Below are positions 1-61,508 of a stretch of DNA of 64,000 nucleotides, in pieces. Each line of letters starts with the position of its first letter. Position 1 is the first letter of the stretch. A program made the position numbers and the translations under genes. The DNA comes from Terriglobia bacterium (GTDB taxonomy: Bacteria; Acidobacteriota; Vicinamibacteria; Vicinamibacterales; CAVVIG01), in contig JAIQFX010000027.1 in NCBI GenBank assembly GCA_020073005.1, forward strand, positions 120 through 64,119. Direction: 5' to 3'. The notes under the pieces are model-generated. The model worked only from the letters and a program-made list of their open reading frames with translations. It did not search any database and had not been told where the DNA came from.

Positions 1-1
1 G

Positions 2-247
2 TCGGTCGCCGCAATGCTGGAAGAGGCTCGCGCGGCTGAGAGCGATCGCGATTTCATTTCAAAATGCAGCATCGGACTGAAAGAAGCACGTGAAGCCCAC
101 GTCAGGCTTCGCCTTCATGAAGCCTGTCGCATCGGGCCAGCCCCGGAAGCGGTGGCGCTTCGGGAGGAAGCCAACGCTCTGGTGTCAATCATCGGGACCA
201 TCGTCCGGAATAAGCGTGCGAACATGGCCCTAATTCTTCATTCCTAA
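2..247 (+). CDS. four-helix-bundle protein (TIGR02436 / 23S rRNA intervening-sequence protein family), 5'-truncated by window edge
   Basis: Frame is open from the window edge to TAA 245-247. 'DFISKCSIGLKEAREAHVRLRL' resembles the conserved F-I-x-K-L-x-I-A-x-K-E-x-x-E helix of the family. The ORF ends inside a TAATTCY array. Confidence 0.55.
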   Translation, partial: SVAAMLEEARAAESDRDFISKCSIGLKEAREAHVRLRLHEACRIGPAPEAVALREEANALVSIIGTIVRNKRANMALILHS

Positions 248-250
248 TTC
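231..250. repeat. TAATTCY heptamer array (single arm at end of four-helix-bundle gene)
   Basis: taattcttcattcctaattc; it contains the TAA stop of the upstream ORF. Confidence 0.7.
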
Positions 251-1156: not shown

Positions 1157-1242
1157 CTAATTAAGAATGAAGAATCATGAATTATGAAAGGGACGCCTGC
1201 GAGCGTTCGTCATTCTTAATTCCTAATTCTCCATTCTTAATT
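1157..1242. repeat. inverted pair of TAATTCY/GAATTAR heptamer arrays (long imperfect hairpin) filling an intercistronic gap
   Basis: Left arm is ctaattaagaatgaagaatcatgaattatgaa. Right arm is cattcttaattcctaattctccattcttaatt. It lies between the PGT stop (1253) and the GT2 start (1151). Confidence 0.8.
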
Positions 1243-1252
1243 GGACCGTTCC

Positions 1253-2632: not shown

Positions 2633-4014
2633 AGGGCGGGTGGGGGAGCTGGGGCGGGTAAGGCAGGTGGGGAGACAGCCGCCTGCCACGCGTCCGCCGA
2701 GACGCGCGTGCCGGCCGCGATCACCATCCAGAACATGCCCATGATTTTGTACGAGACGAACGCGTCGACGAGCACGGCGCTGACCGACGTGGCCACCACG
2801 GCGAGCGCCGCTCCATACACGATAGCACGCGGCAGCGGCCCCGCACTGTGAGGAGTGCGGCGCGCGGCGCGGACGAGCATCCACAGCAGCGCCGCGAGAA
2901 GGACGATGAAGGTCACGAATCCGGCGACGCCCGTGTCCGCCAGCACGCGGACGTACCAGCCGTCGGGCGAGGCGGGCAGATCGTACTGGCGGACGTACGC
3001 GAGGTAGCCGCCGAGGCCGTCGCCGAGGAAGGGCCGCGCGAGCCAGTGATCGAACGCGAGCCGCCAGTTCTTCGCGCGCAGCGCCAGGCTCGGATCGGTC
3101 GCGATCGCCTGCCGGATGACGTCGGGATCGAGCGTCGTCGCGAGCGACACGACGCCGTGCACGAGCGTCAGCATCTTCTTCGACGTGATCACGTACGGCG
3201 CCGCGGCCGCGGCGACGCCCATCGTCAACAGCGTTCGCCACCGCGCGTGCCAGACGAGATCGATCGCGACGATCAGCACCAGCCCGAGCAGCGACGCGCG
3301 CGACTCGGAATTCGCCGTCACGATCGCGCCGGCCGCGAGCGCCAGCGTCGTCAACGGACCGCGGCTGCCGCCGGCGCTCCACAGCGCGTACATCAGGATC
3401 GTCGCGAGCATCATGTAGCCGCCGAAGTCGTACGAGGCCGAGAACGTCGGATAGAGCGTCGCCCACGGCGTGGGCGGTCCGGCGGCGGGCGCGTGCGTCC
3501 AGTGCTGCGCGAGCCAGATCGCGCAGATCAGCAGCAGTGCGGTGCGCGCGACCTCGACGAAGCGATTGAATTCGTCCGGCGCGAGCGCGCTATAGAAGAA
3601 GTAGTAGAGCAGGCCGTACTGGACGAGACGGCCCGCGTGAAACACGCCCGTCAGCGGCTCAGTCGACAGCGCGGCCACGCCGATCAACGTGCACGCGATC
3701 GCGACGCCCCAGTAGATCAATAGAAAGAATGTCGCGGGCGAGGGAGGCGCCGTGGCGTCCCCCGGATTCGTGGTGTCCGGCTTCAGCCGGATCCCGGGCC
3801 GGACCCTGAAGAACTTCCGCGCCCACCAGATCAGCACGAGCGCGAGCACGACATCGTCGACGCGGATCGGCGTCGTGTTGCCCGGCACGGCGGCGAGCGG
3901 CACCTTCGGCATCAGCGCGATGAACAGGACGAGAAACGCCCAGACGCGCGGCACGCGCCGGAGTTGGTAGGCCGAAACAACGACGCACGCGGCGATGATG
4001 ACGATGGGCGACAT
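2629..4014 (-). CDS. O-antigen ligase / Wzy-like polymerase family membrane protein
   Basis: About 10-12 hydrophobic helices in a polysaccharide locus. It carries an in-frame hairpin-repeat insertion ('RLKPDTTNPGDATAP'). Confidence 0.6.
   Translation of the reverse strand: MSPIVIIAACVVVSAYQLRRVPRVWAFLVLFIALMPKVPLAAVPGNTTPIRVDDVVLALVLIWWARKFFRVRPGIRLKPDTTNPGDATAPPSPATFFLLIYWGVAIACTLIGVAALSTEPLTGVFHAGRLVQYGLLYYFFYSALAPDEFNRFVEVARTALLLICAIWLAQHWTHAPAAGPPTPWATLYPTFSASYDFGGYMMLATILMYALWSAGGSRGPLTTLALAAGAIVTANSESRASLLGLVLIVAIDLVWHARWRTLLTMGVAAAAAPYVITSKKMLTLVHGVVSLATTLDPDVIRQAIATDPSLALRAKNWRLAFDHWLARPFLGDGLGGYLAYVRQYDLPASPDGWYVRVLADTGVAGFVTFIVLLAALLWMLVRAARRTPHSAGPLPRAIVYGAALAVVATSVSAVLVDAFVSYKIMGMFWMVIAAGTRVSADAWQAAVSPPALPAPAPPPAL
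3751..3805. repeat. CGTGG-GTCCGGCTTCAGCCGGAY hairpin unit inserted in-frame in the Wzy-like CDS
   Basis: cgtggcgtcccccggattcgtggtgtccggcttcagccggatcccgggccggacc. The same unit occurs at 29197, 30813-30873 and 56909. Confidence 0.75.
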
Positions 4015-4015
4015 G

Positions 4016-4118
4016 GAAATTATGAATTGGGAATTAGGAATTAAGAATGGAATCCCTGACTGTCTTCTCGCTAATTCTGAATTCTGAATTCTTAATTCTT
4101 AATTCCTAATTCCTAATT
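4016..4118. repeat. inverted pair of TAATTCY heptamer arrays
   Basis: Left arm is gaaattatgaattgggaattaggaattaagaatggaat. Right arm is ctaattctgaattctgaattcttaattcttaattcctaattcctaatt. It spans from the Wzy-like start (4014) into the last codons and TAG (4106-4108) of the Wzz-like gene. Confidence 0.8.
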
Positions 4119-4795
4119 ACCTGCCGCGCCGCGACGAACGCCGTCGCCATCAGAACACCGAGTCCCAACCCGACGGCGAGATTTACAGCGCGGCGCGGAT
4201 AGCCCGGCGCCGCCGGAAGCGCCGGTGGATCGACGACGACGACGCGTCGATGGACCGCGGGCGCGATGACCTCGGCTTCGTCGCGGCGGTTCGCCTCCAG
4301 CCCGCGCGCGACGATCGCCTCGGCGAGTTTCAGCGCGGCGTCCGGAGCCGGTTGCCACACGGTCAGCCGCACGAGATCCGCGCCGTCGATCGCATCGGCG
4401 GTCACCCACGCGGCCGCCTGTCTGTCGTCGAGCGATTGGCCCGCGGACAGCAGACCAGCATCGCGCGCGGCGAGCGTCACGAGGCCCGGCGCGGCGAGGC
4501 GCGGCGCCCAGCGGCCGGGCCCGCTCTGCCGCAGCGGATCGTTCTCATCGTAGAGGCGTCCGTCGGCGCCGATCTTCGGCTGATGTGTGCGCAGGAATTC
4601 GGCGACGACCTCCGGCGGCGGCCGGACGCTGAGGAGCGCGCGCGACGCGTAGAGCGGCGTCTGCAGCGCGGTGACGATCGCCGCGATCGCCACGCATGCC
4701 GCGACGATGATCAGGATTGGGAGTCGCGCAGTCCAGAGGAGTCGAAGGTACCACCCGGCCGGAGAGCGCGGCCGGTCCGTGGCAGCGTCGGTCAC
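4106..4795 (-). CDS. polysaccharide chain-length determinant (Wzz/PCP-like) protein
   Basis: N-terminal TM 'LPILIIVAACVAIAAIV' followed by 'LQTPLYASRALLSV', plus a C-terminal TM. GTG 4795 makes a GTGA overlap with the pseB stop. The start is inferred. Confidence 0.5.
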   Translation of the reverse strand: MTDAATDRPRSPAGWYLRLLWTARLPILIIVAACVAIAAIVTALQTPLYASRALLSVRPPPEVVAEFLRTHQPKIGADGRLYDENDPLRQSGPGRWAPRLAAPGLVTLAARDAGLLSAGQSLDDRQAAAWVTADAIDGADLVRLTVWQPAPDAALKLAEAIVARGLEANRRDEAEVIAPAVHRRVVVVDPPALPAAPGYPRRAVNLAVGLGLGVLMATAFVAARQVIRN

Positions 4796-5853
4796 ACGCG
4801 TGGGGCCGCCGGCTGGCCCGCGATGTCTCGCAGTTCGTCCATGCTCAGCCAGTGGTCGTTCGTGTCGCTCGCGTACGTGAAGTTCTCCGCCACCGGCCGG
4901 CCGCCGTTCGAGCGATAGTCGGCCAGCGTCCACTCGTGAAACGCGGGCGTGATCACGTAGTGCGTGTCGAACTCGAACGTGTAGCGCCACTCGTCGGCGG
5001 GAATCATCACTTCATGGAGCTTCTCGCCTGGGCGGATGCCGACGATGTCCAGCCGGCACTCGGGCGCGATCGCGCGCGCGAGGTCGATGGTCTTCATGCT
5101 CGGGATCTTCGGCACGAAGATCTCGCCGCCGCGCATCCAGTCGAGCGCCGCGAGGACCAGCGTCGCGCCCTGATCGAGCGTGATCCAGAACCGCGTCATG
5201 TCGGGATGCGTGATCGGCAGCACGCCCGACGCCCGCTTGGCCTGAAAGAACGGGATCACGCTCCCGCGGCTGCCGACGACGTTGCCGTAGCGCACGCAGG
5301 CGAAGCGCGTGCCGTGGCCACCGCCGTAGGAATTCGCGGCGACGAAGAGTTTGTCGGCGCAGAGCTTGGTCGCGCCGTAGAGATTGAGCGGATTCGCGGC
5401 CTTGTCCGTGCTGAGCGCGACGACGGTCTTCACGCCGGCATCGAGCGCGACCTCGATGATGTTCTGCGCGCCGATGACGTTGGTCTTGATGACCTCGAAC
5501 GGGTTGTATTCCGCCGCCGGCACCTGCTTGAGCGCGGCCGCGTGAACGACGATGTCCACGCCCTGAAACGCGCGGTGCAGCCGGTCGCGATCGCGCACGT
5601 CGCCGAGGAAGAAGCGCAGGCGCGGGTCGTCATTGAAGTGCTGCGCCATCTCGTTCTGCTTCATCTCGTCGCGGCTCAGGATGGCCAGCCGCTTCGGATT
5701 GGCGTGAGCGAGCGCGATTTCGCTGAACCGGCGGCCGAACGAGCCGGTGCCGCCGGTGACGAGCACCGACTTTCCTTCGAAGCAATTCGTGGCGATGCGG
5801 CGGGAGTCGAGCGACCCGCAGTACGTACGACGAACGGGGTTGGATTCAGTCAA
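4792..5853 (-). CDS. pseB: UDP-N-acetylglucosamine 4,6-dehydratase (inverting)
   Basis: 'VLVTGGTGSFG', 'LSTDKAANPLNLYGATK', 'RYGNVVGSRGSVIPFF' and 'MTRFWITL' are characteristic of PseB/FlaA1. Confidence 0.85.
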   Translation of the reverse strand: MTESNPVRRTYCGSLDSRRIATNCFEGKSVLVTGGTGSFGRRFSEIALAHANPKRLAILSRDEMKQNEMAQHFNDDPRLRFFLGDVRDRDRLHRAFQGVDIVVHAAALKQVPAAEYNPFEVIKTNVIGAQNIIEVALDAGVKTVVALSTDKAANPLNLYGATKLCADKLFVAANSYGGGHGTRFACVRYGNVVGSRGSVIPFFQAKRASGVLPITHPDMTRFWITLDQGATLVLAALDWMRGGEIFVPKIPSMKTIDLARAIAPECRLDIVGIRPGEKLHEVMIPADEWRYTFEFDTHYVITPAFHEWTLADYRSNGGRPVAENFTYASDTNDHWLSMDELRDIAGQPAAPRV

Positions 5854-5899
5854 GATCTTGTAGCATCGAGGGTTAGCGCGCCGGAGTGACTAGAAAATT

Positions 5900-9494: not shown

Positions 9495-9496
9495 CG

Positions 9497-9607
9497 AAAT
9501 TGCGGAACGCGGAATGCGGAGCGCGGAGGTCTGGCGACGGAACAGCGCGAGCAATCGAGACGTTCGACGAGTCTCAATCCGCATTCCGCAATCCTCAATC
9601 CGCAATG
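9497..9607. repeat. inverted GCGGAAT/GCGGAGY heptamer arrays with about a 42-nt spacer
   Basis: Left arm is aaattgcggaacgcggaatgcggagcgcggagg. Right arm is tctcaatccgcattccgcaatcctcaatccgcaatg. It starts 3 nt after the synthase stop. Confidence 0.8.
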
Positions 9608-9624: not shown

Positions 9625-10962
9625 ATGAGCGTGAAGGTCAAGTCATCGACCGCGAAAGGCCAGGAGCTCTACCGCCGCGCGAAGAAGCTGATCCCGGGCG
9701 GGACGCAGCTGCTGTCGAAGCGGCCGGAAATGTTCCTGCCCGATCAGTGGCCCTCGTACTACTCGAAGGCGCGCGGCGTCGAGGTCACCGACGTCGACGG
9801 CAACACGTACGTCGACATGTCGATGATGGCGATCGGCGCGTGCGTGCTCGGCTACGCCGATCCGGACGTCGACGCGGCGGCGAAGGCGGCAATCGACGCC
9901 GGGTCCGCCACGACCCTCAACGCGCCCGAGGAAGTCGAGCTCGCCGAGCTGTTGTGCGAGCTGCATCCGTGGGCGCAGATGGTCCGCTACGCGCGCTCGG
10001 GCGGCGAGGCGATGATGATGGCCGTCCGCATCGCGCGCGCACACACGCGCAAGGACAAGATCGCGTTCTCCGGCTACCACGGCTGGTGCGATTGGTACCT
10101 GGCGGCCAACCTCTCGGATGAACGCGCGCTCGACGGCCAGCTGATGCCCGGCCTCGATCCCGCCGGCGTGCCGCGCGGCCTGAAGGGCACGGCGCTGCCG
10201 TTCCACTACAACCGGCTCGATCAGCTGAAGGCGATCGTCGACGCCACGCGCGGCGAGCTCGGCGTCATTGTCATGGAGCCGCGGCGCGGCGACGCGCCGG
10301 CGCCGGGCTTCCTCGAAGCGGTGCGCGCGATCGCGACCGACATCGGTGCCGTGCTGGTCTTCGACGAAGTGACGACCGGCTTCCGCATGACCGACGGCGG
10401 CATCCACAAGCTCCTCGGCGTCAACCCGGACATCGCCGTCTTCGCGAAGGCGATGGCCAACGGCTATCCGATGGCCGCCGTCATCGGCACGTCGACCGTG
10501 ATGGAAGCCGCGCAATCCACGTTCATCAGCAGCACCAACTGGACCGAGCGCGTTGGCACGGTCGCGGCGATCGCGACGATCCGCAAGATCCGCCGCGAGC
10601 GCGTGACGGATCACCTGATCCGCATCGGCGAGCTGACGTTCGCCGGCTGGAAGGCCGCCGCCGCGAAGGCCGGCCTCGCGCTGCACACCGAAGGCCTGCC
10701 GAGCCTGACGCACTTCGGCTTCGAGCATCCGGACGAGCCCGCGCTGACGACGCTCTTCACGCAGGACATGCTGGAGCGCGGCTATCTCGCGTACAGCCAG
10801 TTCAAGCCGTCGTTCGCGCATCAGCCGTCGCACGTCGACGCGTACATGAAGGCCGTCGCATCGTCGTTCGCGATGATCGCGGACGCGATCAAGGCGGGCG
10901 ACTATGGATCGCGATTGAAAGGGCCGTCCGCAAGGCGCGGGTTTTATCGATTGACGTCGTAA
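9625..10962 (+). CDS. class III (glutamate-1-semialdehyde aminomutase-like) PLP aminotransferase
   Basis: 'SGGEAMMMAVRIARAHT', 'VFDEVTTGFR' and 'FAKAMANGYP'. ATG 9625 was chosen because upstream ORF codons are translated repeat array. Confidence 0.8.
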   Translation: MSVKVKSSTAKGQELYRRAKKLIPGGTQLLSKRPEMFLPDQWPSYYSKARGVEVTDVDGNTYVDMSMMAIGACVLGYADPDVDAAAKAAIDAGSATTLNAPEEVELAELLCELHPWAQMVRYARSGGEAMMMAVRIARAHTRKDKIAFSGYHGWCDWYLAANLSDERALDGQLMPGLDPAGVPRGLKGTALPFHYNRLDQLKAIVDATRGELGVIVMEPRRGDAPAPGFLEAVRAIATDIGAVLVFDEVTTGFRMTDGGIHKLLGVNPDIAVFAKAMANGYPMAAVIGTSTVMEAAQSTFISSTNWTERVGTVAAIATIRKIRRERVTDHLIRIGELTFAGWKAAAAKAGLALHTEGLPSLTHFGFEHPDEPALTTLFTQDMLERGYLAYSQFKPSFAHQPSHVDAYMKAVASSFAMIADAIKAGDYGSRLKGPSARRGFYRLTS

Positions 10963-11040
10963 TGAAGAATTAAGAATGAAGAATTACGAATTATGAATTC
11001 CGAACCATTCTTAATTCCCAATTCCTAATTCTTAATTTCA
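10961..11040. repeat. inverted pair of TAATTCY heptamer arrays
   Basis: aatgaagaattaagaatgaagaattacgaattatgaattc / attcttaattcccaattcctaattcttaatttcac. It includes the TAA stop 10960-10962. Confidence 0.8.
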
Positions 11041-11990: not shown

Positions 11991-13018
11991 TGCGATCGAT
12001 CCTCATCCGTTGCGACGGCGGCGCCGACATCGGCATGGGCCACGCGGTCCGATCGCTGGCGCTTGCCGACGAGCTGCGCGACGCGCACGGCTGCGCGATC
12101 GCGTTTGCGATGCGCGAGCCCGCCGGCGCGGGCGCGGCCGCCGTGCGCGCGGCGGGGTACGCAATCGACGTGATCGAGGCCGACGATCGCCACGACTATC
12201 CCGACGTCCTCGCCGCCCTCACCGCGTCGCGCAAGGCTGACGTGCTGATCGTCGACGTCCGCGACGCGCTGTCGCGCGCGGCGCTCGACCGTCTTCGTCA
12301 GGCCGGCGTCCACATCGTCACGATCGACGACATCTCCGAACGGCGGCTCGCGTCGGACCTCGCGTTCTATCCGCCCGTTCCGCACGTCGCGGCGATCGAT
12401 TGGACCGGATTCACCGGTCGCCGGTATGCGGGCTGGGAGTGGGTGATTCTCAGAAGAGAGTTTGGGGCAGGTGGGGCTGGTGGGGAGAGCCCCGCGATCG
12501 ACGTGCTCGTGACGATGGGCGGGAGCGACGCGGCGGGGATGACGGCGTTCACGCTCCAGGCCCTCGAGCTGCTGCCGATGCCGCTCTCGGTTCTCGTCGT
12601 GGTGGGACCGGCGTTCACCCACGCGCTCGAGCTCATCGACGCGGCCGCGCGCTCACGGCACAGCGTTCGGATCGCACGGACGCCCGGGTCGATGGCGGCG
12701 CTGATGCGCGGGAGCCGGATGGCCGTCGCGGCGTTCGGCGTCAGCGCGTATGAGCTCGCGGCCTGCGGCGTGCCGGCCGTCCATCTCTGCCTGACGAGCG
12801 ACCACGAGCGCTCATCGTCTGCCTTCGTCGAGGCCGGCATTGCGATCACCGCAGGTGTATTCGGACACGTGCTGCCGGAGCAGATTGCCGACTCGGTGAC
12901 GCGGCTGATGGGGAATGCCGGCCGCCGCGGCGAGATGGCGGAGCGCGCGCGGCGCCTGGTCGACGGCCGCGGCGCTCGACGCGTGGCCGACGAGATCGTC
13001 AGCCGGTTACTGAGCTGA
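11990..13018 (+). CDS. pseG: UDP-2,4-diacetamido-2,4,6-trideoxy-beta-L-altropyranose hydrolase-like (GT-B, PseG family)
   Basis: 'IRCDGGADIGMGHAVRSLALA' and 'VLVTMGGSD'. TGATG overlap with the AKR stop. Confidence 0.7.
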   Translation: MRSILIRCDGGADIGMGHAVRSLALADELRDAHGCAIAFAMREPAGAGAAAVRAAGYAIDVIEADDRHDYPDVLAALTASRKADVLIVDVRDALSRAALDRLRQAGVHIVTIDDISERRLASDLAFYPPVPHVAAIDWTGFTGRRYAGWEWVILRREFGAGGAGGESPAIDVLVTMGGSDAAGMTAFTLQALELLPMPLSVLVVVGPAFTHALELIDAAARSRHSVRIARTPGSMAALMRGSRMAVAAFGVSAYELAACGVPAVHLCLTSDHERSSSAFVEAGIAITAGVFGHVLPEQIADSVTRLMGNAGRRGEMAERARRLVDGRGARRVADEIVSRLLS

Positions 13019-13125
13019 CGGACGGACGGACGGACGGACGGACGAAGGTAACCACGGAGGACACAGAGGACACAGAGGACACGGAGGAAGAGAATCCAGC
13101 CACAGAGACACCGAGACACAGAGAG
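13019..13125. repeat. (ACGG)n, GAGGACACA and CACAGAGA tandem arrays
   Basis: cggacggacggacggacggacg; then accacggaggacacagaggacacagaggacacggaggaag; then cagccacagagacaccgagacacagagag. It starts directly after the pseG TGA. Confidence 0.8.
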
Positions 13126-13174: not shown

Positions 13175-13256
13175 CACTGCGGAAAAAGGCCGACGCAATC
13201 ACAAACGTTGATTCAATGCAGCGTCGTTTGTGTTGCGCCGGCCTTTTTTCGCAGTG
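13175..13256. terminator. bidirectional intrinsic terminator-like long hairpin between convergent genes
   Basis: cactgcggaaaaaggccgacgcaatcacaaacg pairs with cgtttgtgttgcgccggccttttttcgcagtg (2 mismatches and 1 bulge). The A-tract/T-tract geometry gives a U-run on both strands. Confidence 0.6.
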
Positions 13257-13294
13257 CGACGGCCGGCTCCGCCGGCCGCCGGTCGCACACGCTT

Positions 13295-13319
13295 CAACTC
13301 CTCCGTGTCCTCCGTGGTT
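13295..13319. repeat. inverted partner of the GAGGACACA array
   Basis: caactcctccgtgtcctccgtggtt is the reverse complement of aaccacggaggacacggaggagttg (compare 13050-13075). Confidence 0.75.
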
Positions 13320-13372
13320 TCATTTCTTCTGCGGTTTCCGCGAGTTCTGCGTTGATCGTCGTTCGTTGTGAA

Positions 13373-15244
13373 TCAACGAGTCTCGGCGACCAGCGCGGCG
13401 ACGCGGTCGGTCGCGTGGCCGTCCAGCTCGGACACGTACGCGCGCAGCTCGGCGCTGCGCGCAAGCGCCCCGCGATCCAGCCCGGCCGCGCCGGCGCGCC
13501 GCGCGGTGAGCTGTTGCCCGAGTTCCTCGATCGAGTACGCGATCGCGATCCCCGGCACGCGATCGAGCGGCAGCAGCTTCCGGCGGAAGACGGCATCGAA
13601 GACGATCGCCGGTGTGCCGAGCGCGATCGACTCGAGCACGGTCGTCGAGTACGCGGCGACGAGCACGTGCGACTTCTCGAGGATGTCGTACAGAATCGGC
13701 TCGCGGATCGTCGTCAACGTCAGCGGATCCCACCCCAGCGCCCGCGCGGCCTCCGCGTAGTACTCCGCTTCCTCGCCCGGATGCATCTTGTGAATGACGC
13801 GGACGTCGGTCTGCGTCCGGGCCCACGCGAGGACCGCGTCGATCATCAGCAGGTTCTCGTACTCGGACGCGCCCATCGAGTAGTCCGTCATGAAGCCGGA
13901 GCAGATCGTAACGGTGAATGTGGCTGGTGCCTGGTGACTGGTGGCTGGTGACTGACTCCCGACTCCCGACTCCCGACTCCCGACTCGCGCGGCGAGCGCG
14001 TCAAAGCGCGGGTTACCCGTTACAACAAAGCTCGCTGTCTGCGCGCCTTGCGCGCGATACCACGTCTCGGTCCAGTCCCCCCACGTGGCGAGCCGGTCCA
14101 CGTGCGCGACGGAATGCCCGTTCGGCTCGCCCGTGATGCCGTGCTGGATTCCCGTCGACGCCACGCCGAAGCGGCGCGCCGTGTCGATGAGCACGCGGTT
14201 GTACGCCGTCACGTCGCTCGACGTGAGCACTCGCCCGCCGGCGCACGCGTCGGTGAGCGACTGCAGGTGACGCAGCGCCGGGACCCACGCCGCGATGTGC
14301 AGCCACACCGTGCGGCCGACGAGCGGCCAGTACGGCACGCCGGCCACGGTGAACTGGCCGGCGTGCGCGCGATCGCCGCTCAACGAGAGCGCCTGCGCCA
14401 CGGCGTCGGCGAGCGCGCCCAGCCAGCGGATCGGATCGACGAGATCGGTGAACGCTTCCAGTGGGATGAGGTCGCGCGGTTGAAACAGCGCGCGCCCGGG
14501 CTGCGTCGCCCCCGCGATCACGATGGGACGCGCGGCGCCCTGAAGCCGCTCGACGACATCCGCGGTGAAGCGATCGCCGACGACGATCAGCGCGCGAGCG
14601 CCTGGCGACGGCATCGCACCGCGCGCGATCCGGCGCCACAGGCCCGTGAAGAACGTCAACCAGATGAAGCCCGGCTCGAGCACGAGCGCGCGAAATTCCG
14701 TGTTGACCCACTTCGTCGCGCGGCCGGCCCGAAGGCGCGCGAACGCCTGCGCCGCGCGCTGAAGGACGTCACCGCCGACGATCTCGGTCGTCAACCCGCG
14801 ACGGCTCGCCACGAGGCGCGCGGCGTCCACGAGCGGCCCGCCGCCGACGAGCACGAGGCGGCCCGGCGCGGATCGCGTCAGCTCGTCGTCGATCGCGGTG
14901 ACGTTGCGCACGGCGCGGCTGAACGACGGGATGAGCGTGTACTGCAGGTATGGGCCGAAGTTCGTGCCCATGGCTTCGGCGTGCTTGCCCGCGGCGCGCG
15001 TGACGCCGTCGAGCATCGCGCGATCGCGCTCGACGATGAGATCCGGCGTGAGGCCGTCGGTCGTCAGGCGCGCGTCGATTCCTTCGCGGCGCAGCCGCAT
15101 CGCGAGCAGCGCGTCGCCGGTCAGGACGGCGGCCGACGCGCCCCGCAGCCGCGCCGGCGCCAGCGCTTCCCGCAGCGCGCGTTCCGCGTGACGGTCCTCG
15201 ACGATCAGCAGCTGGTCCGTGATACGGCGAGCGTACCACGACAT
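13373..15244 (-). CDS. hypothetical two-domain protein, C-terminal half GT-B/Rossmann-like (candidate glycosyl- or nonulosonate-transferase)
   Basis: 623-aa ORF with normal composition in a sugar locus. The C-terminal 'VLVAAYSTTVLESIALGTPAIVF' resembles the GT-B donor-binding helix. No family was recognised with certainty. Confidence 0.45.
   Translation of the reverse strand: MSWYARRITDQLLIVEDRHAERALREALAPARLRGASAAVLTGDALLAMRLRREGIDARLTTDGLTPDLIVERDRAMLDGVTRAAGKHAEAMGTNFGPYLQYTLIPSFSRAVRNVTAIDDELTRSAPGRLVLVGGGPLVDAARLVASRRGLTTEIVGGDVLQRAAQAFARLRAGRATKWVNTEFRALVLEPGFIWLTFFTGLWRRIARGAMPSPGARALIVVGDRFTADVVERLQGAARPIVIAGATQPGRALFQPRDLIPLEAFTDLVDPIRWLGALADAVAQALSLSGDRAHAGQFTVAGVPYWPLVGRTVWLHIAAWVPALRHLQSLTDACAGGRVLTSSDVTAYNRVLIDTARRFGVASTGIQHGITGEPNGHSVAHVDRLATWGDWTETWYRAQGAQTASFVVTGNPRFDALAARVGSRESGVGSQSPATSHQAPATFTVTICSGFMTDYSMGASEYENLLMIDAVLAWARTQTDVRVIHKMHPGEEAEYYAEAARALGWDPLTLTTIREPILYDILEKSHVLVAAYSTTVLESIALGTPAIVFDAVFRRKLLPLDRVPGIAIAYSIEELGQQLTARRAGAAGLDRGALARSAELRAYVSELDGHATDRVAALVAETR
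13920..13986. repeat. GGTGRCT and GACTCCC heptamer arrays, in-frame inside the 623-aa CDS
   Basis: gtggctggtgcctggtgactggtggctggtgactgactcccgactcccgactcccgactcccgactc. On the minus strand it is translated as 'SRESGVGSQSPATSHQAPAT'. Confidence 0.8.
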
Positions 15245-21796: not shown

Positions 21797-21822
21797 TCCG
21801 CATTCCCCACTCCGCACTCCGC
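21794..21822. repeat. single arm of GCGGAAT-type array
   Basis: taatccgcattccccactccgcactccgc. It begins with the TAA stop of the GH57-like gene. Confidence 0.65.
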
Positions 21823-25204: not shown

Positions 25205-25298
25205 CTGCAGCTTTCAGCTGTCAGCACTCGGCTTTCAGCGCTCACTTCTTCCTTCTTCCTTCTTAATTCCTAATTCTTAATTCTTAATTCTCAATTCC
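25205..25298. repeat. concatenated arrays: CAGCTTTCAGCTG-type units, CTTCCTT heptamers and TAATTCY heptamers
   Basis: ctgcagctttcagctgtcagcactcggctttcagcgctcac; then ttcttccttcttccttctt; then aattcctaattcttaattcttaattctcaattcc. It abuts the thiS stop codon (TAG, 25298-25300). Confidence 0.8.
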
Positions 25299-25629: not shown

Positions 25630-28600
25630 ATGCCGTCGCGTCCGACCGCTGATACCACGCCCGAGACCGCACTGGGCGTGCCGGGTTACACGTTCGCCGA
25701 TCTGCACGATCCGCCGAGGCTGGCGTCGCTCTACGAGCGCTTCTGCGAGGAAGTGGCCGCGGCCGATCCGGTTGTCTGGCGCGAGTGGGACGCGTATCGC
25801 CAGGCGCCGGATGCGCCGCGCGCGCCGCTCGCGGTGTCGAATCTGCTCACGAGCATGGCGCCGCACGTCAGCCGCTTCCTCACGCGCCTGTTTCAGGTGG
25901 AGCCGGACGCGCGCGCGATCGGCGACGCCACCCGCGCGCAGGACGATCTGTTCCGCTTCAAGGTGGACTTCGTGCGCCGCCGCGCGCTGCCGCTCGTCAA
26001 ACTAGACAAAGCAGGCGGCGCGCCCCTCACGGCAACGCCCGAAGACGATGCGATCGTCGACCAGCTGATCGCGCGATCGGCCGGCGTCGACCGCGAGCTC
26101 GCCGTCGCACGAGCAGGATGCGCGCTCCTCGATCAAGAGCGCGCCGAAGCCACCAGCCACCAGCCACCAGCCACCAGTCGCCAGGTCGATGCGCTCAAGC
26201 GCTGGTGCGCGTCGCGTCTGCACGACCGCGCGTACCGCGACTGGGTGATCTTCCGTTTTCCCGAGACGCTCGACTACTGGAAGCTCGTCGAGGTCCGGCG
26301 TCCCGAGCCGCGGCGGCCCGAGTCGATGCTCGGGCCTGATTGGCGGCGCCGCCGCCGCGATGGTTTCCTGCTCACGGACGCGCGCATGAATGCGCGCGAG
26401 ACGATGAGCGAGATCCATTACTGCGTGCTGTGCCACGAGCGCGACAAGGACTCGTGCTCGAAAGGCCTCTTCGAAAAAGATCTCACAGTTGTCGTCAACC
26501 CGCTCGGCATTCCGCTCGACGGCTGTCCCCTCGACGAGAAGATCTCCGAGATGCACACCTTGCGCAAGGCCGGCGACGCCGTCGGCGCGCTCGCGCTCGT
26601 CGTCGTCGACAACCCGATGTGTCCCGGCACCGGCCATCGCATCTGCAACGACTGCATGAAGTCGTGCATCTACCAGAAGCAGGAGCCGGTCAACATTCCG
26701 CAGATCGAAACGGGCGTGCTGACCGACGTCCTGCGGCTGCCGTGGGGCGTGGAGATCTTCGGTCTGCTCACGCGGTGGAATCCGCTCAACGTCCGCCGGC
26801 CGTACGCGCTGCCGTACAACGGCAAGAACGTCCTCGTCGTCGGCCTCGGCCCCGCGGGTTACACGCTCGCGCACTATCTGGTGAACGAAGGCTTCGGCGT
26901 CGTCGGCGTCGATGGACTCAAGATCGAGCCGCTGCCGCGCGACATCGTCGGCACCGACACCGTCGCGCCGCGGCCGATTCGCGACTGGGACGAAATCTAT
27001 CGCCGCCTCGACGAGCGCGTGCTCGAGGGATTCGGCGGCGTGTCCGAGTACGGGATCACCGTGCGATGGGACAAGAACTTCCTGACGCTGCTGCACCTGA
27101 CGCTCGCGCGGCGGCGCGGCCTGCGGATGTACGGCGGCGTCCGCTTCGGCGGCACGCTGCCCATCGAGGACGCGTGGACGTACGGCTTCGATCACGTGGC
27201 GATTGCCGCGGGCGCCGGACGGCCGACCGTCATCGACATGAAGAACAACCTGATCCGCGGGATCAGGAAGGCGAGCGATTTCCTGATGGCGCTGCAGCTG
27301 ACGGGCGCCTTCAAGCGCGACGCGCTTCCCAATCTGCAGGCGCGCCTGCCGGCGGTCGTCATCGGCGGCGGCCTCACGGCGATCGACACGGCGACCGAGC
27401 TGATGGCGTACTACCCGCTGCAGGCGGAGAAGACGCTGCGGCGGTACGAGACGCTCGTCGCCGAGATTGGCGAAGCGCGCGTGCGCGGCGCGTACGACGC
27501 CGAAGAGCTCGAGATTCTCGACGAGTCGCTCGCACACGGACGCGAGGTGCGCGCCGAGCGCGCGCGCGCCGCGACCGCCGGCGAGTCACCCGACTTCGTG
27601 CCGCTCGTGCGATCGTGGGGCGGCGTCACGATCGCGTACCGCAAGCGCATGGTCGATTCGCCGGCGTACCGGCTGAATCACGAGGAAGTGATCAAGGCGC
27701 TCGAAGAAGGCATCGTGTTCGCGGAGCTGCTGAATCCCGTTGAAGCAGTTTCGGACGCGCGGGGCGCGCTGAAAGAAGTGATCTTCAGGCGGGAAGGGCG
27801 GGAGAGGCAGGAAGGGCAGGAAGGGAACGTGACGCTCCCTGCGCGGACGCTGCTCGTGGCGGCGGGGACGACGCCCAACATCACGTGCGAGAAGGAAGCG
27901 CCGGGCCACTTCCAGCTCGACGCGAAGAAGAAATTCTTCCAGCCGCACGGCGTCACCGCGAACGGCGACGGCCGTTTCCATCTGACGCCCGATCCGAACG
28001 GCTTCTTCACGTCGTACGACGCCGACGGCCGGTTCGTCACGTACTACGGCGACAACCATCCGCGCTACGCCGGAAACGTCGTCAAGGCGATGGCCTCGGC
28101 CAAGCACGGCTTCCCGCAGGTGACGCGGCTGTTCGCGCGCGACCTCGCGTCGCTCGACGCGGGGAAGCAGGCCGATCGCGATCGCGCCTGGACGGCGCTC
28201 GTGCAGCGGCTCGACACCGATCTGCTCGCGCGCGTCGAGGACGTCGTGCGGCTGACGCCGACGATCGTCGAAGTCATCGTGAAGGCGCCGGCGGCCGCGC
28301 GCCATTTCCATCCGGGTCAGTTCTACCGGCTGCAGAACTTCGAATCGGTCGCGCGCCGCGTCGGCCCGACGCCGCTGCTGATGGAAGGCATCGCGCTCAC
28401 CGGCGCGTGGGTGGACAAGGAGCGCGGGCTGCTGTCGCTCATCGCGCTCGAGCTCGGCGTGTCGAGCCGGCTCGTCGCGTACCTGCAGAAGGGCGAGCCG
28501 GTCGTCGTCATGGGACCGACGGGCGCGCCGACGGACATCCCCGAGTGCCAGAACGTGCTGCTGCTCGGCGGCGGCCTCGGCAACGCCGTGCTCTTCTCGA

Positions 28601-29492: not shown

Positions 29493-31655
<2,163 letters not shown>

Positions 31656-32628: not shown

Positions 32629-32690
32629 TTCGTGGCCTTCTGCCTTCTTCCTTCTTCCTTCTTGACTTCGCTCTCATTCTCCATCATCTT
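32629..32690. repeat. CTTCCTT / GAAGGAA heptamer array in a divergent intergenic region
   Basis: ttcgtggccttctgccttcttccttcttccttcttgacttcgc. On the minus strand it gives GAAGGAA repeats (SD-like) directly upstream of the glk ATG. Confidence 0.75.
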
Positions 32691-42623: not shown

Positions 42624-42694
42624 GGGTGGCTGGTGACTGGTGGCTGGTGACTGACGAGAAACGCTCAACGACCAATGACCAACGACTGACGACC
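42624..42694. repeat. two different heptamer arrays (GGTGRCT x4 and CAAYGAC x4) in a divergent intergenic region
   Basis: gggtggctggtgactggtggctggtgactgac and ctcaacgaccaatgaccaacgactgacgacc. They are not complementary to each other. Confidence 0.8.
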
Positions 42695-43840
42695 ATGGAT
42701 TCCTGCATCGCGCTTCTCCGCGATCTCGTCGCGATCAACTCGGTCAATCCCACGCTCGTGCCGGGCGCGCCGGGCGAGCGCGCGGTCGCCGAGTTCATCG
42801 CGGCCGACATGCGCACGCACGGTCTCGACGTTTCGATCGAGCCCGTCGTGCCGGATCGACCGAACGTCGTCGGCGTCCTCGAGGGGCGCGCGCCGGGGCG
42901 GACGCTGATGTTCTGCGGCCACACCGACACCGTCGGCGTCGCGGGCATGACCGATCCGTTCGCGCCGGTCGAACGTGACGGCCGTCTGTACGCGCGCGGC
43001 GCGCAGGACATGAAGGGCGGCGTCGCCGCGATGATGAGCGCGGCCGCGGAGATCGCGGCGCGCGGCGGCCTCGCGAAAGGCCGATTGATCGTCGCGGCCG
43101 TTGTCGATGAAGAGCACTCGAGCATCGGCGCGGACGCGCTCGTCACGAAGTGGCGCGCCGACGCGGCAATCGTGACGGAGCCGACCGACCTCGCGATCGC
43201 GGTCGGACACAAGGGTTTCGCGTGGGTGCGCGTCGATGTCGAAGGCAAGGCCGCGCACGGCAGTCGTCCGGCGGAAGGGCAGGACGCGATTCTGCGGCTC
43301 GGCCGCGTCCTCGCGCGGCTCGAGGCGCTGGACGCGACGCTGCAGGCGCAGCCGCCGCACGCGCTGATGGGCACCGGATCGCTGCACGCGTCGCTCATCG
43401 AAGGCGGACACGAGCTGAGCAGCTATCCCGATCATGCGACGCTGCAGATGGAGCGGCGGACGCTGCCCGGCGAGCCCGAATCGAAAGCGCTGGCGGAAGT
43501 GCAGCAGATTCTCGACGCGCTCGCGCGCGAGGATCCGACGTTCCGCGGCACGGCGACGGCGAGGTTCAGCCGGCCGGCGTACGAAGTCCCCGCGAATCAT
43601 GAGCTGCCGCGCGCGCTGACAGCCGCGCTGGCGCGCGCCGGAGGCCAGCCGCGCATCGCGGGCGCGAGTTTCTGGACCGACGCCGCAGTCCTCGGCCACG
43701 CCGGGATTCCCTCGATCCTCTTTGGACCGGGTGGGGCTGGACTTCACTCGACGGTCGAATACGTCAACGTGCGGGATGTGTTGACGTGTCGAGACGCGTT
43801 GATCGAGTTGGCAAAGAACTACTGCGGGTCAATTGGGTAG
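42695..43840 (+). CDS. M20 family metallopeptidase (ArgE/DapE-type deacylase)
   Basis: 'FCGHTDTV', 'ARGAQDMKGG' and 'VVDEEHSS'. Confidence 0.8.
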   Translation: MDSCIALLRDLVAINSVNPTLVPGAPGERAVAEFIAADMRTHGLDVSIEPVVPDRPNVVGVLEGRAPGRTLMFCGHTDTVGVAGMTDPFAPVERDGRLYARGAQDMKGGVAAMMSAAAEIAARGGLAKGRLIVAAVVDEEHSSIGADALVTKWRADAAIVTEPTDLAIAVGHKGFAWVRVDVEGKAAHGSRPAEGQDAILRLGRVLARLEALDATLQAQPPHALMGTGSLHASLIEGGHELSSYPDHATLQMERRTLPGEPESKALAEVQQILDALAREDPTFRGTATARFSRPAYEVPANHELPRALTAALARAGGQPRIAGASFWTDAAVLGHAGIPSILFGPGGAGLHSTVEYVNVRDVLTCRDALIELAKNYCGSIG

Positions 43841-44229
43841 TTGAGTAATTGGGTAGGTGGGTAATTGCCGTGACGTTGCCAGTATCGGATTGAACGCACT
43901 CGGATTCAGCGCGTTCGTTCGGGGACACCGTCGTTGTCGTGGAGAGACACCAGTGATGTGGCTTCCGAGTCGATCACAATAGGCGCTGATATGGATTGCC
44001 CTCGTCGGCGGGTGCGCGCTTGCTGCCGTCTCAATCAGCTACAGCGATCAAACGGCAACTGCTGAAGGCGGCAACATCAGTGTTGTGACCGAGGAGGCCG
44101 ACGAGTGTCAGTACTGGCTGAACCTCGTTGCGGATGCAAAACTGGCGACGAGTCCTGAGCGGAGCGGCGATGATTGCGGCGGGAAGCGATTACCCAATTA
44201 CCCAACCTTACTCAATTCCCCGATTCACC
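43831..44229. mobile_element. candidate palindromic element: inverted GGGTAATT arrays bracketing a decayed four-helix-bundle gene
   Basis: Arms are 43831-43867 (aattgggtagttgagtaattgggtaggtgggtaattg) and 44188-44229 (gattacccaattacccaaccttactcaattccccgattcacc). The interior looks lower in GC and has only broken ORFs. Confidence 0.45.
43983..44186 (+). pseudogene. degenerate four-helix-bundle (TIGR02436-like) gene fragment
   Basis: The frame reads '...AAVSISYSDQTATAEGGN...EEADECQYWLNLVADAKL', reminiscent of the 'AAxSIxxNIAEG' and 'KEAxETxYWLxLL' motifs. There is no plausible full-length ORF. Confidence 0.35.
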
Positions 44230-46265: not shown

Positions 46266-46311
46266 GCACGCACGAAGTGCGGGGACGGCCGCAGACTTCA
46301 GCCATCACACT

Positions 46312-47316
46312 TCAGACTTCAATCGCCTGACAGACCGCGTCCGCAAACTCCTGCGTGGACGCGGTGCCTCCCAGGTCCCGCGTGCGGACACGGCGCGCGC
46401 TGAGCACCGCGCGCAGCGCCTGCATGACGCGATCGGCGGCGCCGCCCTCGTCGATGTGCCGGAGCATCATCACCGCGGAGAGCAGCAGCGCGGTCGGGTT
46501 CGCGATCTGCTTGCCCGCGATGTCGGGCGCGCTGCCGTGCACGGCCTCGAAGACCGCGCACTCGGTGCCGAGATTCGCCGCGCCCACCACGCCGAGCCCG
46601 CCGACGAGTCCCGCGCAGAGATCCGACACGATGTCGCCGTACAGATTCGGCAGCAGCAGGACGTCGAACTGCGACGGGTTCATCACCAGGTGCATGCACG
46701 CCGCGTCGACGATGCGCTCGTCGTACGCGATCTCGCCGTACTCGCGCGCCACGCGCCGGATGCTCTCGAGGAACAAGCCGTCGCCGAGCTTCATGATGTT
46801 GGCTTTGTGGATCGCGGTCACTTTCTTCCGGCCGTGGCGCCGCGCGTGCTGGAACGCGAAGTGCGCGATGCGCGTCGACGCGCGCTCGGTGATGATCTTC
46901 AGGCTCTCGACGACCCCGGGCACGACCTCGTGCTCGAGGCCCGCGTAGAGATCTTCCGTGTTCTCGCGGACGATGACGAGGTCGAGCCCCTGGAACTTCG
47001 CGTCGACGCCCGGCAGGTTGCTCACGGGCCGCAGGTTCGCGTAGAGATCCAGCGCCTTGCGCAGGCCGACGTTCACGCTCGTGAAGCCCTGGCCGATCGG
47101 CGTCGTGACGGGGCCCTTCAGCGCGACCTTGTTGCGCCGGATGGAGTCGATGAGCGCGGCCGGCAGCGATTCGCCCGACCGCTCGAACGCCGTCAGGCCG
47201 GCGGCGTGCGTCTCCCAGTCGATCGCGACGCCCGCCGCGGCGATGATGCGCACGACCGCGTCGGTGACTTCCGGACCGATGCCGTCGCCGGGAACGAGCG
47301 TGATTGCGTGGGCCAT
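46312..47316 (-). CDS. isocitrate/isopropylmalate dehydrogenase family enzyme (NAD-IDH-like, 334 aa)
   Basis: 'LVPGDGIGPE', 'NLRP', 'VRENTEDLY' and 'NLYGDIVSD'. The ORF N-terminal extension was rejected. Confidence 0.85.
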   Translation of the reverse strand: MAHAITLVPGDGIGPEVTDAVVRIIAAAGVAIDWETHAAGLTAFERSGESLPAALIDSIRRNKVALKGPVTTPIGQGFTSVNVGLRKALDLYANLRPVSNLPGVDAKFQGLDLVIVRENTEDLYAGLEHEVVPGVVESLKIITERASTRIAHFAFQHARRHGRKKVTAIHKANIMKLGDGLFLESIRRVAREYGEIAYDERIVDAACMHLVMNPSQFDVLLLPNLYGDIVSDLCAGLVGGLGVVGAANLGTECAVFEAVHGSAPDIAGKQIANPTALLLSAVMMLRHIDEGGAADRVMQALRAVLSARRVRTRDLGGTASTQEFADAVCQAIEV

Positions 47317-47356: not shown

Positions 47357-48229
47357 TTGTCTGCGTTCTTGAACGCCGAACTGGAGTCGATCACCGCGGT
47401 CGTGCTGGACGCGCTCGACGTGCTCGCCCGGGCGCGCGCCGGCGGCGCGGATGCGGTTCCCGATCCCGCCGCGCTGATCTTCCTGCTCCGGCGATATCTG
47501 GCGAGCGATCGCGACGATCTGCGCGACGCGCTGGGCGAGGCGCTGGCGCCGGCCCTCGCGCGCGCCGCGGCCGAAACGCGCAGCCTCGAGTGCGCCGCCT
47601 GGCTCACGCTCTTCTCGGAAGCCAGCGCGATCTCCGACGATGACCGTCTTCCTTCAGCCGCCGCCGCGCTGATCGCCGACCTGCGGCGCGCCTGGCCGTC
47701 GACGGACGTCGTCGAACAGGGCATGGCGTCGGTCGACGCGTGCCTGCGCGCCGCGAACCTCGTCGATCCGCAGGACCTCGTGCCCGCCGCCATCGACGAG
47801 CTCGAGCGCGTCGTCGGCCATGCGTATCAGCCGGGCGACGGCATCGCCCACACGATTCATTCGCACGTGCACGCGCGCGGGAGCCTCGGCGATCACGTGC
47901 GGTCGGCGTCGGCGCTCCTCACGGCCTTCGAGATCAGCGGTCGCCTGCCCTATTCGATGCTGGCCGAGGAGTTGATGCAGACCGCTCGTCGAGATCTGCA
48001 GGGCGCGACGGACTTCATCGCGCGCTGCGAAGGCTGCCGGGTGCTGAGCCGCCTCGCCGCGCTGCACGCGGACGAGGCGTACCGCGGCGCGGCCGTCATC
48101 GCGCCGCATGTCGATTACCGGGCGGATGCCGAACGCGTAATCACGGCGCTCTCATCGGATCCGCTCGCGCGCGGATCCGGCGCCGGGGAGTACGGGCTGG
48201 CGCTGCTCGCGGCGCTGGACGCGCGATGA
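47357..48229 (+). CDS. hypothetical protein
   Basis: About 290-aa alpha-helical-looking ORF with normal composition. The start is TTG 47357 or 47369. No family was recognised. Confidence 0.45.
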   Translation: MSAFLNAELESITAVVLDALDVLARARAGGADAVPDPAALIFLLRRYLASDRDDLRDALGEALAPALARAAAETRSLECAAWLTLFSEASAISDDDRLPSAAAALIADLRRAWPSTDVVEQGMASVDACLRAANLVDPQDLVPAAIDELERVVGHAYQPGDGIAHTIHSHVHARGSLGDHVRSASALLTAFEISGRLPYSMLAEELMQTARRDLQGATDFIARCEGCRVLSRLAALHADEAYRGAAVIAPHVDYRADAERVITALSSDPLARGSGAGEYGLALLAALDAR

Positions 48230-48277
48230 GATTTCAGATTTGAGAATTCAGAATTCAGAATACAATTCCCTTCTCCC
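48227..48277. repeat. AGAWTTC heptamer array
   Basis: tgagatttcagatttgagaattcagaattcagaatacaattcccttctccc. It begins with TGA 48227-48229 and ends at the tkt ATG. Confidence 0.75.
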
Positions 48278-61403: not shown

Positions 61404-61508
61404 ATTGGGTGAGTGAGTAGTTGGGTAATTGAGTAATCGCGGCGGCATTTCGCCGCGGGCGACGCAGCCATTACCCAATTACCCAACTTCCCACTTACCC
61501 AATTCACC
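61400..61508. repeat. cargo-less inverted GGGTAATT arrays: about 39-nt imperfect hairpin spanning the gap between convergent stop codons
   Basis: Left arm is gtgaattgggtgagtgagtagttgggtaattgagtaat. The right arm's reverse complement is ggtgaattgggtaagtgggaagttgggtaattgggtaat. The arms touch TGA 61401-61403 and TGA (minus strand) 61509-61511. Confidence 0.85.

Follow-up and report, generated by a model that had tools for sequence, protein, structure and literature searches.

Heptamer arrays at gene ends of a Vicinamibacterales metagenome contig: probable arms of palindromic four-helix-bundle elements that meet stop codons, most likely without targeting them

The stretch of DNA analysed here (hereafter the window, 64 kb of the 70-kb metagenome contig ENA ERZ27247940 k141_11151) carries many short tandem arrays with a period of seven nucleotides, which lie directly at the stop codons of protein-coding genes. 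We propose that these heptamer arrays are probably, for the most part, the paired or solo arms of palindromic elements built around a gene for a four-helix-bundle (4HB) protein, that these elements are placed in compact intergenic gaps, and that the contact with stop codons would thereby arise without any targeting. An element type resembling the intervening sequences of ribosomal RNA (rRNA), in which inverted heptamer arrays surround a 4HB gene, is on sequence comparison present across phyla.

The window has a G+C content of 68%, and its ThiG protein is 90-92% identical to those of metagenome-assembled genomes (MAGs) of Vicinamibacterales (Acidobacteriota). Genes have been mapped with a codon log-odds caller, which agrees with the gene calls of the ENA contig, and annotated with Pfam and NCBIfam, while tandem arrays have been called with Tandem Repeats Finder (TRF). 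The TRF period spectrum holds 18 rows at period 7, three at period 8 and none at 5, 6, 10 or 11; the 18 period-7 rows have at least three copies each and are mostly intergenic. The units include GAATTAA, GCGGAAT, TGAAAAC and AGAATTC, and none is a rotation of TAACTGA. These arrays are real DNA: they have been reproduced identically in an independent Logan contig and in five metagenome runs, and are present at orthologous sites of a related MAG (L085, 86-91% nucleotide identity to the window). An artefact of assembling or sequencing low-complexity DNA, to which the tendency of short-read contigs to break inside arrays might point, has a practically negligible chance of being the explanation, since besides this agreement between independent assemblies and another MAG the same architecture is found in complete plasmids of cultured or enriched strains.

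The original prediction had listed 11 stop codons as abutting or lying within arrays, and all 11 have indeed been found to do so and to end open reading frames (ORFs) with coding-type codon usage, most of them with Pfam domains. The codons read TAG at 4106 (minus strand), TAA at 10960, TGA at 13016, TAA at 21794, TAG at 25298 (ThiS), TGA at 39634, TAG at 43838 (inside the array) and TGA at 44225, 48227, 61401 and 61509. Arrays of period 7 or 8 have been called at every one of them except at 13016, where the array beginning at 13017 has period 4, and the stop-to-array gaps span -13 to +4 nt. Five further gene ends (258, 1253, 9492, 21827 and 46312) lie inside an array or at most 7 nt from one. 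The claim that the array encodes the last residues of the Wzz-like protein (229 aa in the gene call of the ENA contig) has likewise been borne out, as the codons gta att agg aat and the following TAG fall within the array and the protein ends ...RQVIRN-stop.

Within the interval [-15,+3] nt of an element edge, 11 stops and only three starts have been counted in the window. The permutation of array edges against stops, run on the window, gives a divided answer: the 11 stops are a clear enrichment over random placement in pooled intergenic DNA (4.1 +/- 1.4 expected, P<0.0002), but not over random placement within each element's own gap (P=0.10). The spacer left over on each side of most elements amounts to a few nucleotides, and the contact with stops mostly follows because the elements nearly fill their own gaps. 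The positional bias, which had been described as strong and in need of a mechanism, is thus real, but the within-gap result, the compact gaps, the stop-rich units with their period of seven and selection leave no requirement for a mechanism aimed at stops. The contact is largely mechanical and should not be read as stop targeting. The type of stop codon (TGA versus TAA/TAG) has shown no difference near and away from arrays (p=1), and so has added no support for stops donated by arrays.

Two kinds of array have been distinguished, namely inverted pairs, in which the arms are reverse complements of the same unit, and solo arrays. The 4HB-bearing elements and the paired arms of the window are listed here by coordinates, with the strand where one applies:

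1..247, plus strand: 3' two-thirds of a 4HB gene, whose full ORF (L001 2448-2843, 131 aa) starts 148 nt left of the window
229..250: right arm of this 4HB-bearing element, made of CCTAATT-type units, for which GAATTAG is the reverse complement; its left-hand partner lies at L001 2306-2345
1157..1246: E2, ORF-less hairpin with GAATNNN-type arms, filling the 101-nt gap from the sugar-transferase stop (1253) to the GT2 start (1151)
4018..4118: E3, hairpin with arms at 4018-4048 and 4072-4118, the right arm encoding VIRN and the Wzz-like stop at 4106
9502..9606: E4, inverted GCGGAAT / ATTCCGC arrays with a 45-nt spacer, 7 nt past the NeuB-family stop at 9492; units without stop triplets
10961..11037: E5, GAATNNN-type hairpin filling an 80-nt gap, its first unit overlapped by the TAA at 10960
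13017..13124: left side of E6, (GACG)7 followed by GGAGGACACAGA-type units, beginning within the stop at 13016
13299..13320: right arm of E6, CTCCTCCGTGTCC, reverse complement of the left units
43831..43867: left arm of E16, AATTGGGTAG octamers, with the M20 peptidase stop (43838) inside
44047..44159, plus strand: decayed 4HB gene remnant within the spacer of E16, found by tblastn with the intact L085 copy
44189..44225: right arm of E16, ATTACCCA, with the ProDH stop (44225) at its edge
61405..61504: E19, AATTGGGT-type hairpin filling the gap between the convergent stops 61401 and 61509

The gene at the left edge passes both PF05635, named '23S rRNA-intervening sequence protein' (37.9 bits, cutoff 33.8), and TIGR02436, named 'four helix bundle protein' (51.9 bits), and the nearest solved structure is 2RLD; none of the defence-system models of PADLOC is matched by the 4HB proteins. 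GAATTAA-type arms enclose this gene. On the left, the arm directly adjoins the TAG of a co-oriented upstream gene, and the right arm contains the 4HB gene's own TAA and lies 7 nt from the stop (258) of the GT2 gene. A 94%-identical copy with the same arms occupies the same site in L083, and a 54%-identical copy, again with the same arms, has been found at a different site of another MAG (L084); at the three loci read (L001, L084 and L085) the 4HB gene is co-oriented with the gene upstream. In E16 the AATTGGGT-type arms enclose the decayed remnant, the orthologous copy of which is intact in L085 (55.1 bits on PF05635), again between arms of this type. No ORF matching PF05635 or TIGR02436 lies between the repeats of the hairpins E2, E3, E4, E5 and E19, of which E2, E3 and E5 share the GAATTAA/GAATNNN-type arm family of the left-edge element and E19 that of E16.

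The paired arms have been found to fold with z-scores of -4 to -12 into stems of 30-40 bp, with energies of -37.2 kcal/mol (z -5.2) for E2, -36.5 kcal/mol (z -6.8) for E3, -19 kcal/mol (z -4.1) for E5 and -73 / -76 kcal/mol on the two strands (z -11.7) for E19; E4 reaches -55 kcal/mol at z -2.3. In metagenome runs that hold the organism, the sequencing depth at arrays is 3-4 times that of the flanks, and other contigs join the arms of E4 around different loops and, for E6, connect positions 13078/13091 with 13299 through short loops that differ. Hence each arm type is present in multiple copies, and the loops between them are variable. Several short-read contigs of the organism, among them L002 (corresponding to window 4019-9604), begin or end inside arrays; the arrays fragment short-read assemblies, and the elements will be under-represented in MAGs.

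The association between 4HB genes and heptamers extends well beyond the window. A search of reference genomes with a single 4HB protein yielded two loci, and an alignment query against metagenome contigs yielded 80. Inverted repeats span the 4HB ORF in about 65 of the 73 metagenomic loci with usable flanks, with arms of period 7 and in a few cases period 8, and of 67 non-identical loci about 57 have period-7/8 arrays called by TRF, mostly inverted, to the left and to the right of the gene. The unit differs by 4HB subfamily (GAATTAA/GAATTTG, CATTTTC, GATTGCG, GAATTGAC and GATATAT). In the GAATNNN group, arms pair more strongly with their own partner (duplex energy -42.5 kcal/mol) than with arms of other loci (-34.0 kcal/mol, P<0.0002), and therefore co-evolve within a locus, while the 4HB ORFs are under purifying selection (median dN/dS 0.20). 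Among complete plasmids of cultured or enriched strains, tblastn has retrieved 23 records annotated 'four helix bundle protein', 15 of them from Nostoc. All eight plasmid loci inspected (Anabaena cylindrica, Nostoc punctiforme, N. flagelliforme, Chlorohelix, Bernardetia, Treponema, Pseudanabaena and Gloeocapsa, covering Cyanobacteriota, Chloroflexota, Bacteroidota and Spirochaetota) carry heptamer arrays, mostly inverted, directly before the ATG and after the stop. As a control, a 40-kb region of the Bernardetia plasmid holds two period-7 arrays only, both flanking the 4HB gene, and in Chlorohelix two of four such arrays do so. Genes of the '23S rRNA intervening sequence protein' family are thus bracketed by heptamers in Acidobacteriota, Cyanobacteriota, Chloroflexota, Bacteroidota and Spirochaetota, often within operons, clusters of restriction type among them. 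The 4HB gene of L238, a Verrucomicrobiales MAG, is an exception, with no heptamer arrays and only a 13-bp downstream hairpin.

The original prediction had offered insertion at the 3' ends of genes as one possibility, and a preference for 3' ends has been found for 4HB-type elements, as the flanking gene reads towards the element in 17 of about 20 independent 4HB flank contexts, but not for arrays at large, which also occupy start-start gaps and ORFs. In 13 of 20 independent contexts the stop lies inside the array or at most 4 nt away, and the stop-to-array gaps at independent loci cluster near 0, -7 and -14. Unrelated proteins at 4HB elements end ...N-stop or ...I[K/R/G]N-stop (AAT TAA/TAG), which is the same tail as the VIRN-stop of the window.

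Defence-type operons are the setting of four of these 4HB genes, in which the gene with its heptamer arms lies between cas2 and cas1 (L325, Anabaena cylindrica PCC 7122), beside cas1 (L331, Pseudanabaena), between a helicase and an N6-methylase gene (L328, Chlorohelix) and between genes for DUF1156 and HEPN proteins (L332, Gloeocapsa). In L001 (1521-2843), where the preceding gene encodes DUF218, and in L238 (about 7000-7710), the 4HB gene closely follows the preceding gene inside a polysaccharide cluster.

Comparison of orthologous sites suggests that whole elements are gained and lost, that arrays change their unit number in place, and that ORF-bearing forms decay. At the Wzz-like junction, L165 ends ...RQTTRG-stop with its TGA overlapping the next ATG (TGATG) and carries no element, where the window has the 101-nt hairpin E3. 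Between the sugar-transferase and GT2 genes, L166 has an ATGA overlap and L165 a gap of 40 nt, compared with the 101 nt of the window that correspond to E2. Gene junctions of relatives without elements have generally been found to overlap or to measure 0-40 nt, and at the thiS-thiG junction many relatives have gaps of 5-25 nt. The remaining arrays of the window, to which some of the following results refer, are listed here:

13920..13986: stop-free heptamer arrays GTGACTG and GACTCCC, in frame within ORF 13373-15244 (minus strand)
21797..21822: E8, TCCGCAC array filling the 30-nt gap of the convergent stops 21794/21827; stop-free and unstructured
25208..25297: E9, in the gap that separates the ThiS stop (25298) from the ThiG start (25200), with a solo GAATTAA-type arm (25260-25297), then units of GAAGAAG and an array of period 14
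26148..26177: array of AGCCACC units without stops, in frame within ORF 25678-29196 (plus strand), in a linker that differs between orthologues
31331..31362: stop-free CACCAGC array, in frame within the prolyl oligopeptidase gene 29493-31655 (minus strand)
32636..32663: E12, divergent gap with a CCTTCTT array 7 nt upstream of the glucokinase start and without involvement of a stop codon
39631..39665: E13, TGAAAAC-type array, its first full unit being the stop at 39634, ending at the Shine-Dalgarno sequence of the next gene (ATG 39677)
42625..42695: E14/E15, GGTGACT and CAACGAC arrays in a divergent gap
46292..46321: E17, GAAGTCT-type units (gene strand), overlapping the IDH stop (46312) and adding the residues EV
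48229..48261: E18, solo AGAATTC arm beginning at the 48227 stop; a full inverted pair stands at the orthologous position in L085
63271..63332: E20, GCCACGAA / CGTGTTCG octamer arrays in a divergent gap, weakly complementary

The solo arrays E8, E9, E13 and E18 are unstructured, and E20 folds with a z-score of only -0.8. E14/E15 recurs in L085 with the same units at the same site and in other copy numbers. Start-start (divergent) gaps with arrays number three (32636; 42625/42666; 63271/63310). The arrays within ORFs (13920, 26148 and 31331) belong to one GGTGGCT/AGCCACC family, lie in three ORFs and are free of stops on the coding strand; for the one at 26148 the linker varies among orthologues in length and sequence, and no clear insertion can be called.

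The alternative that the original prediction had put beside 3'-end insertion, namely that arrays have overwritten native C-termini and donated new stops, has turned out to apply to a minority of genes and to few residues. In a comparison of nine genes with orthologues or domain models, the stop is donated by the array in three, which are the Wzz-like gene (four residues replaced), the M20 peptidase gene (four residues added, the L085 orthologue stopping four codons earlier) and the IDH gene (two residues added, the array beginning exactly where L085 has TAG). The other six (ThiS ...GG, ProDH ...GER, the sugar transferase, the GT2, MoeA and the gene ending at 48227) have kept their native ends. 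In L085, the orthologue of the last-named gene reads 11 codons into a GAATTCA array; protein tails are longer where the array units lack stops. In two relatives, L003 and L004, the ThiS stop falls within an array at the thiS-thiG junction (about 100 nt upstream of the ThiG match), and the protein extends past its Gly-Gly by four and three residues (SSKG-stop and EHV-stop). ThiS normally requires a free GG end to function, so that these array-encoded tails may be costly or have to be trimmed. Many relatives (L087-L120) share a conserved GGCACG-N4-TTGA(T/A) motif that resembles a sigma-54 promoter, at about 100-150 nt downstream of the stop of proline dehydrogenase; the window has E16 in its place.

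These observations are best accommodated by the following course of events. A complete element would consist of a 4HB gene between two inverted arrays of 7-8-nt units, placed behind protein-coding genes, and the shorter hairpins and solo arms would most likely be its ORF-less remnants. As the elements sit where the junctions of relatives overlap or measure 0-40 nt, their outer edge would be bound to touch the upstream ORF. Because the units are A+T-rich with roughly one stop triplet apiece, and because their length is no multiple of three, any frame that enters such an array should be closed within one to three units. Copies lying deeper in genes, in promoters or in ribosome-binding regions would be removed by selection, and only stop-free arrays would persist in ORFs. 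The outcome would be either a native stop that is directly abutted or a donated stop two to four codons later. Read inward from the gene, the first in-frame stops have been found after 6/13/20 nt in E3, 7/14/21 nt in E9 and 3/10/17 nt in E17, and all three frames close within three units because each 7-nt unit has one stop triplet and 7 is not divisible by 3; the same arithmetic has been pointed out for the TAACTGA repeats by MacGregor 2015 (PMC4679880). Once transcribed into RNA, the two arms of a pair would fold into a long stem just after the stop, which by analogy with rRNA intervening sequences is a likely substrate of RNase III. Stems predicted to be cleavable by RNase III directly behind stop codons constitute a testable hypothesis.

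Several findings weigh against this explanation, and part of them would be expected if the arrays were simple-sequence repeats that have grown in situ, by slippage with a preference for 7 nt wherever sequence is unconstrained, the contact with stops resulting from tiny gaps and from the exclusion of stop-rich arrays from ORFs. The thiS-thiG junction holds arrays of quite different units in different relatives. Random placement of each element within its own gap predicts 8.6 +/- 1.5 stops, from which the observed number does not differ significantly. For E8, E12, E13, E14/15, E17, E20 and the arrays within ORFs, no link to a 4HB gene has been demonstrated, and local slippage must explain part of the overall pattern. 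The loops of the short hairpins are mutually unrelated, and these hairpins are therefore not copies of one master element. No transposase, target-site duplication or insertion event has been seen, and mobility is suggested only by elements being present or absent at orthologous sites and by the recurrence of one arm type at different sites. Slippage would furthermore account for the copy-number differences between window and L085 and for the arrays in divergent gaps and within ORFs, and a slippage origin of heptanucleotide repeats is an idea of Mrazek, as cited in PMC4679880. As an explanation of the whole, we nevertheless regard it as unlikely, because the same arm families recur at non-orthologous sites of different genomes, the arms are inverted and co-vary within a locus, the association with 4HB genes is specific across phyla, and whole hairpins of 90-100 nt stand in the window where the genes of relatives overlap.

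Active targeting, in which the elements or their inserting machinery would recognise stop codons or the 3' ends of transcripts, could draw on the missing spacer between many conserved ORF ends and the first unit, on the frequency of stops inside or within 4 nt of arrays in the independent 4HB contexts, on the flanking genes that face the element, and on the co-orientation of the 4HB gene with the upstream gene at L001, L084 and L085. We consider it very unlikely, as hairpins also end 3-5 nt from downstream start codons (the Wzy start at 4014, for instance, is 3 nt from the left arm of E3), arrays occupy start-start gaps, no conserved target motif or target-site duplication has been seen, the type of stop codon near arrays is the same as elsewhere, and selection against insertions on the 5' side yields an equal bias. 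A function selected by the host, for which the arrays would be kept as three-frame fail-safe stops, as terminators or 3'-end stabilisers, or as devices of translational coupling, appears highly improbable. It would fit the three-frame stops within 20 nt, the stems directly after stops within operons, and the M20 peptidase and IDH genes of the window, which lack the stop position of L085 and end on array stops with 2-4 extra residues; an analogy with repetitive extragenic palindromic (REP) sequences, which stabilise upstream mRNA, might also be drawn. However, close relatives do without arrays at the same junctions, E4, E8 and E12 carry no stops, neither a U-tract nor an enrichment of terminator-like sites has been found, and L085 tolerates an array-encoded tail of 11 residues. 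The stems have also been considered as intrinsic (Rho-independent) terminators, and this has been rejected, since they are 30-40 bp long, A+U-rich in the GAATTAA-type cases and not followed by a T run. A scan with a terminator consensus has revealed no excess of terminator-like sites and has not called the array stems, and no Rfam family, rRNA included, exceeds its threshold anywhere in the window. One metatranscriptome run yielded only four stray fragments and no coverage of the window.

Our proposal of palindromic 4HB-type elements in compact gaps finds its closest known counterpart in rRNA. In Coxiella, the 23S rRNA contains an intervening sequence whose terminal inverted repeats are cleaved by RNase III and which also carries an S23p ORF and a strain-dependent number of tandem GACAGAT heptamers (PMC4990558); this intervening sequence is the only published parallel to the 4HB-heptamer architecture that has been found. 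The elements of the window share with the 23S intervening sequences of Coxiella and Leptospira (PMC4990558) a long inverted-repeat stem, a 4HB ORF in the loop that is prone to decay, and variable heptamers by the ORF. In contrast to these, they lie behind or between protein-coding genes and not in helix 25 or 45 of the 23S rRNA gene, tandem 7-8-nt units make up their entire stem, an ORF is missing from many copies, and excision by RNase III is, by analogy, only predicted.

REP sequences are single imperfect palindromes of 20-40 nt, REPINs are dispersed extragenic hairpin doublets found mostly at the 3' ends of genes, and RAYT, the associated tyrosine transposase of the Pfam families Y1_Tnp/Y2_Tnp, is encoded by a gene that is itself flanked by repeats. 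The elements of the window are similarly dispersed extragenic hairpins with a small associated gene flanked by repeats. They differ in that several unrelated families of heptamer units, repeated in tandem, make up the arms and that the associated gene encodes a 4HB protein with no known catalytic activity; no RAYT-type family has been found among the Pfam matches of the scanned window ORFs. With miniature transposable elements bounded by inverted repeats (MITEs) they share inverted ends, and the hairpins are likewise short, non-coding, variably present at orthologous sites and possibly derived from ORF-bearing parents, but on inspection no target-site duplication is visible at E2, E3 and E19, and the loops differ between copies.

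The STRR of cyanobacteria are period-7 tandem repeat sequences. Together with the heptanucleotide long simple-sequence repeats (LSSR) of Mrazek et al. 2007, to the extent that these are described in PMC4679880, they resemble the period-7 arrays of the window in lying outside genes, in an abundance restricted to certain lineages and in a copy number that varies between relatives; the window arrays are distinguished by their inverted, co-varying pairs tied to a specific gene family. Heptamers also flank the cyanobacterial 4HB genes inspected, and STRR and 4HB elements may be connected. The TAACTGA repeats of Beggiatoaceae, Cyanobacteria and Bacteroidetes (PMC4679880) are intergenic heptamers with stops in three frames that can overlap ORF ends by a few codons, some of them over upstream stops, as in the window. 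Unlike the window arrays, they have another unit, occur mostly as direct repeats and are found just upstream of start codons, and only one indirect (inverted) set and no associated gene have been reported for them (PMC4679880). No relevant literature has been found on heptamer repeats in Acidobacteria or on 4HB proteins together with heptamers, and inverted heptamer arrays bracketing a 4HB gene have not been found described as a general architecture.

The 4HB-heptamer architecture links rRNA intervening sequences, the excess of heptanucleotide repeats and many orphan 4HB genes. In genome annotation, it accounts for short C-terminal tails encoded by arrays, such as ...IRN-stop, and for the breaks of short-read contigs at arrays. 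As a tentative extension, which we judge rather improbable, 4HB genes and their inverted arrays might constitute a widespread self-maintaining element, loosely comparable to REPIN-RAYT, whose protein would recognise its own arrays in DNA or RNA, the ORF-less hairpins and solo arrays being dispersed offspring. If true, such an element would explain the heptanucleotide excess in some bacteria, the cyanobacterial STRR included, and the origin of rRNA intervening sequences.

Some further features of the window deserve mention. Positions 258-24420 form a large surface-polysaccharide cluster with six array elements at gene junctions and one array within an ORF, and it encodes GT2, sugar transferase, two Wzy-like, Wzz-like, flippase, DegT aminotransferase, NeuB, PseG-like, ATP-grasp, methyltransferase and GH57-like proteins. 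A terminator-like hairpin (13190-13260), preceded by an A run and followed by a T run, is located between convergent genes in the spacer that the E6 arms enclose. E9 includes a period-14 array of the GCTGTCAGCACTCG type (25217-25243) on the ThiG side of its GAATTAA-type solo arm, and this one gap thus holds three repeat types side by side. A GC-rich, REP-like palindrome, GTCCGGCTTCAGCCGGAC, occurs at six places of the window (3775-3792, 29198-29215, 30814-30831, 30855-30872, 56872-56889 and 56916-56933), compared with 0.2 expected by chance; two convergent gaps consist almost wholly of it, and three copies lie within ORFs (a Wzy-like gene and the prolyl oligopeptidase gene). The metagenome depth is raised at 3737-4203, and many contigs end at 3769/3791, by one of these copies.

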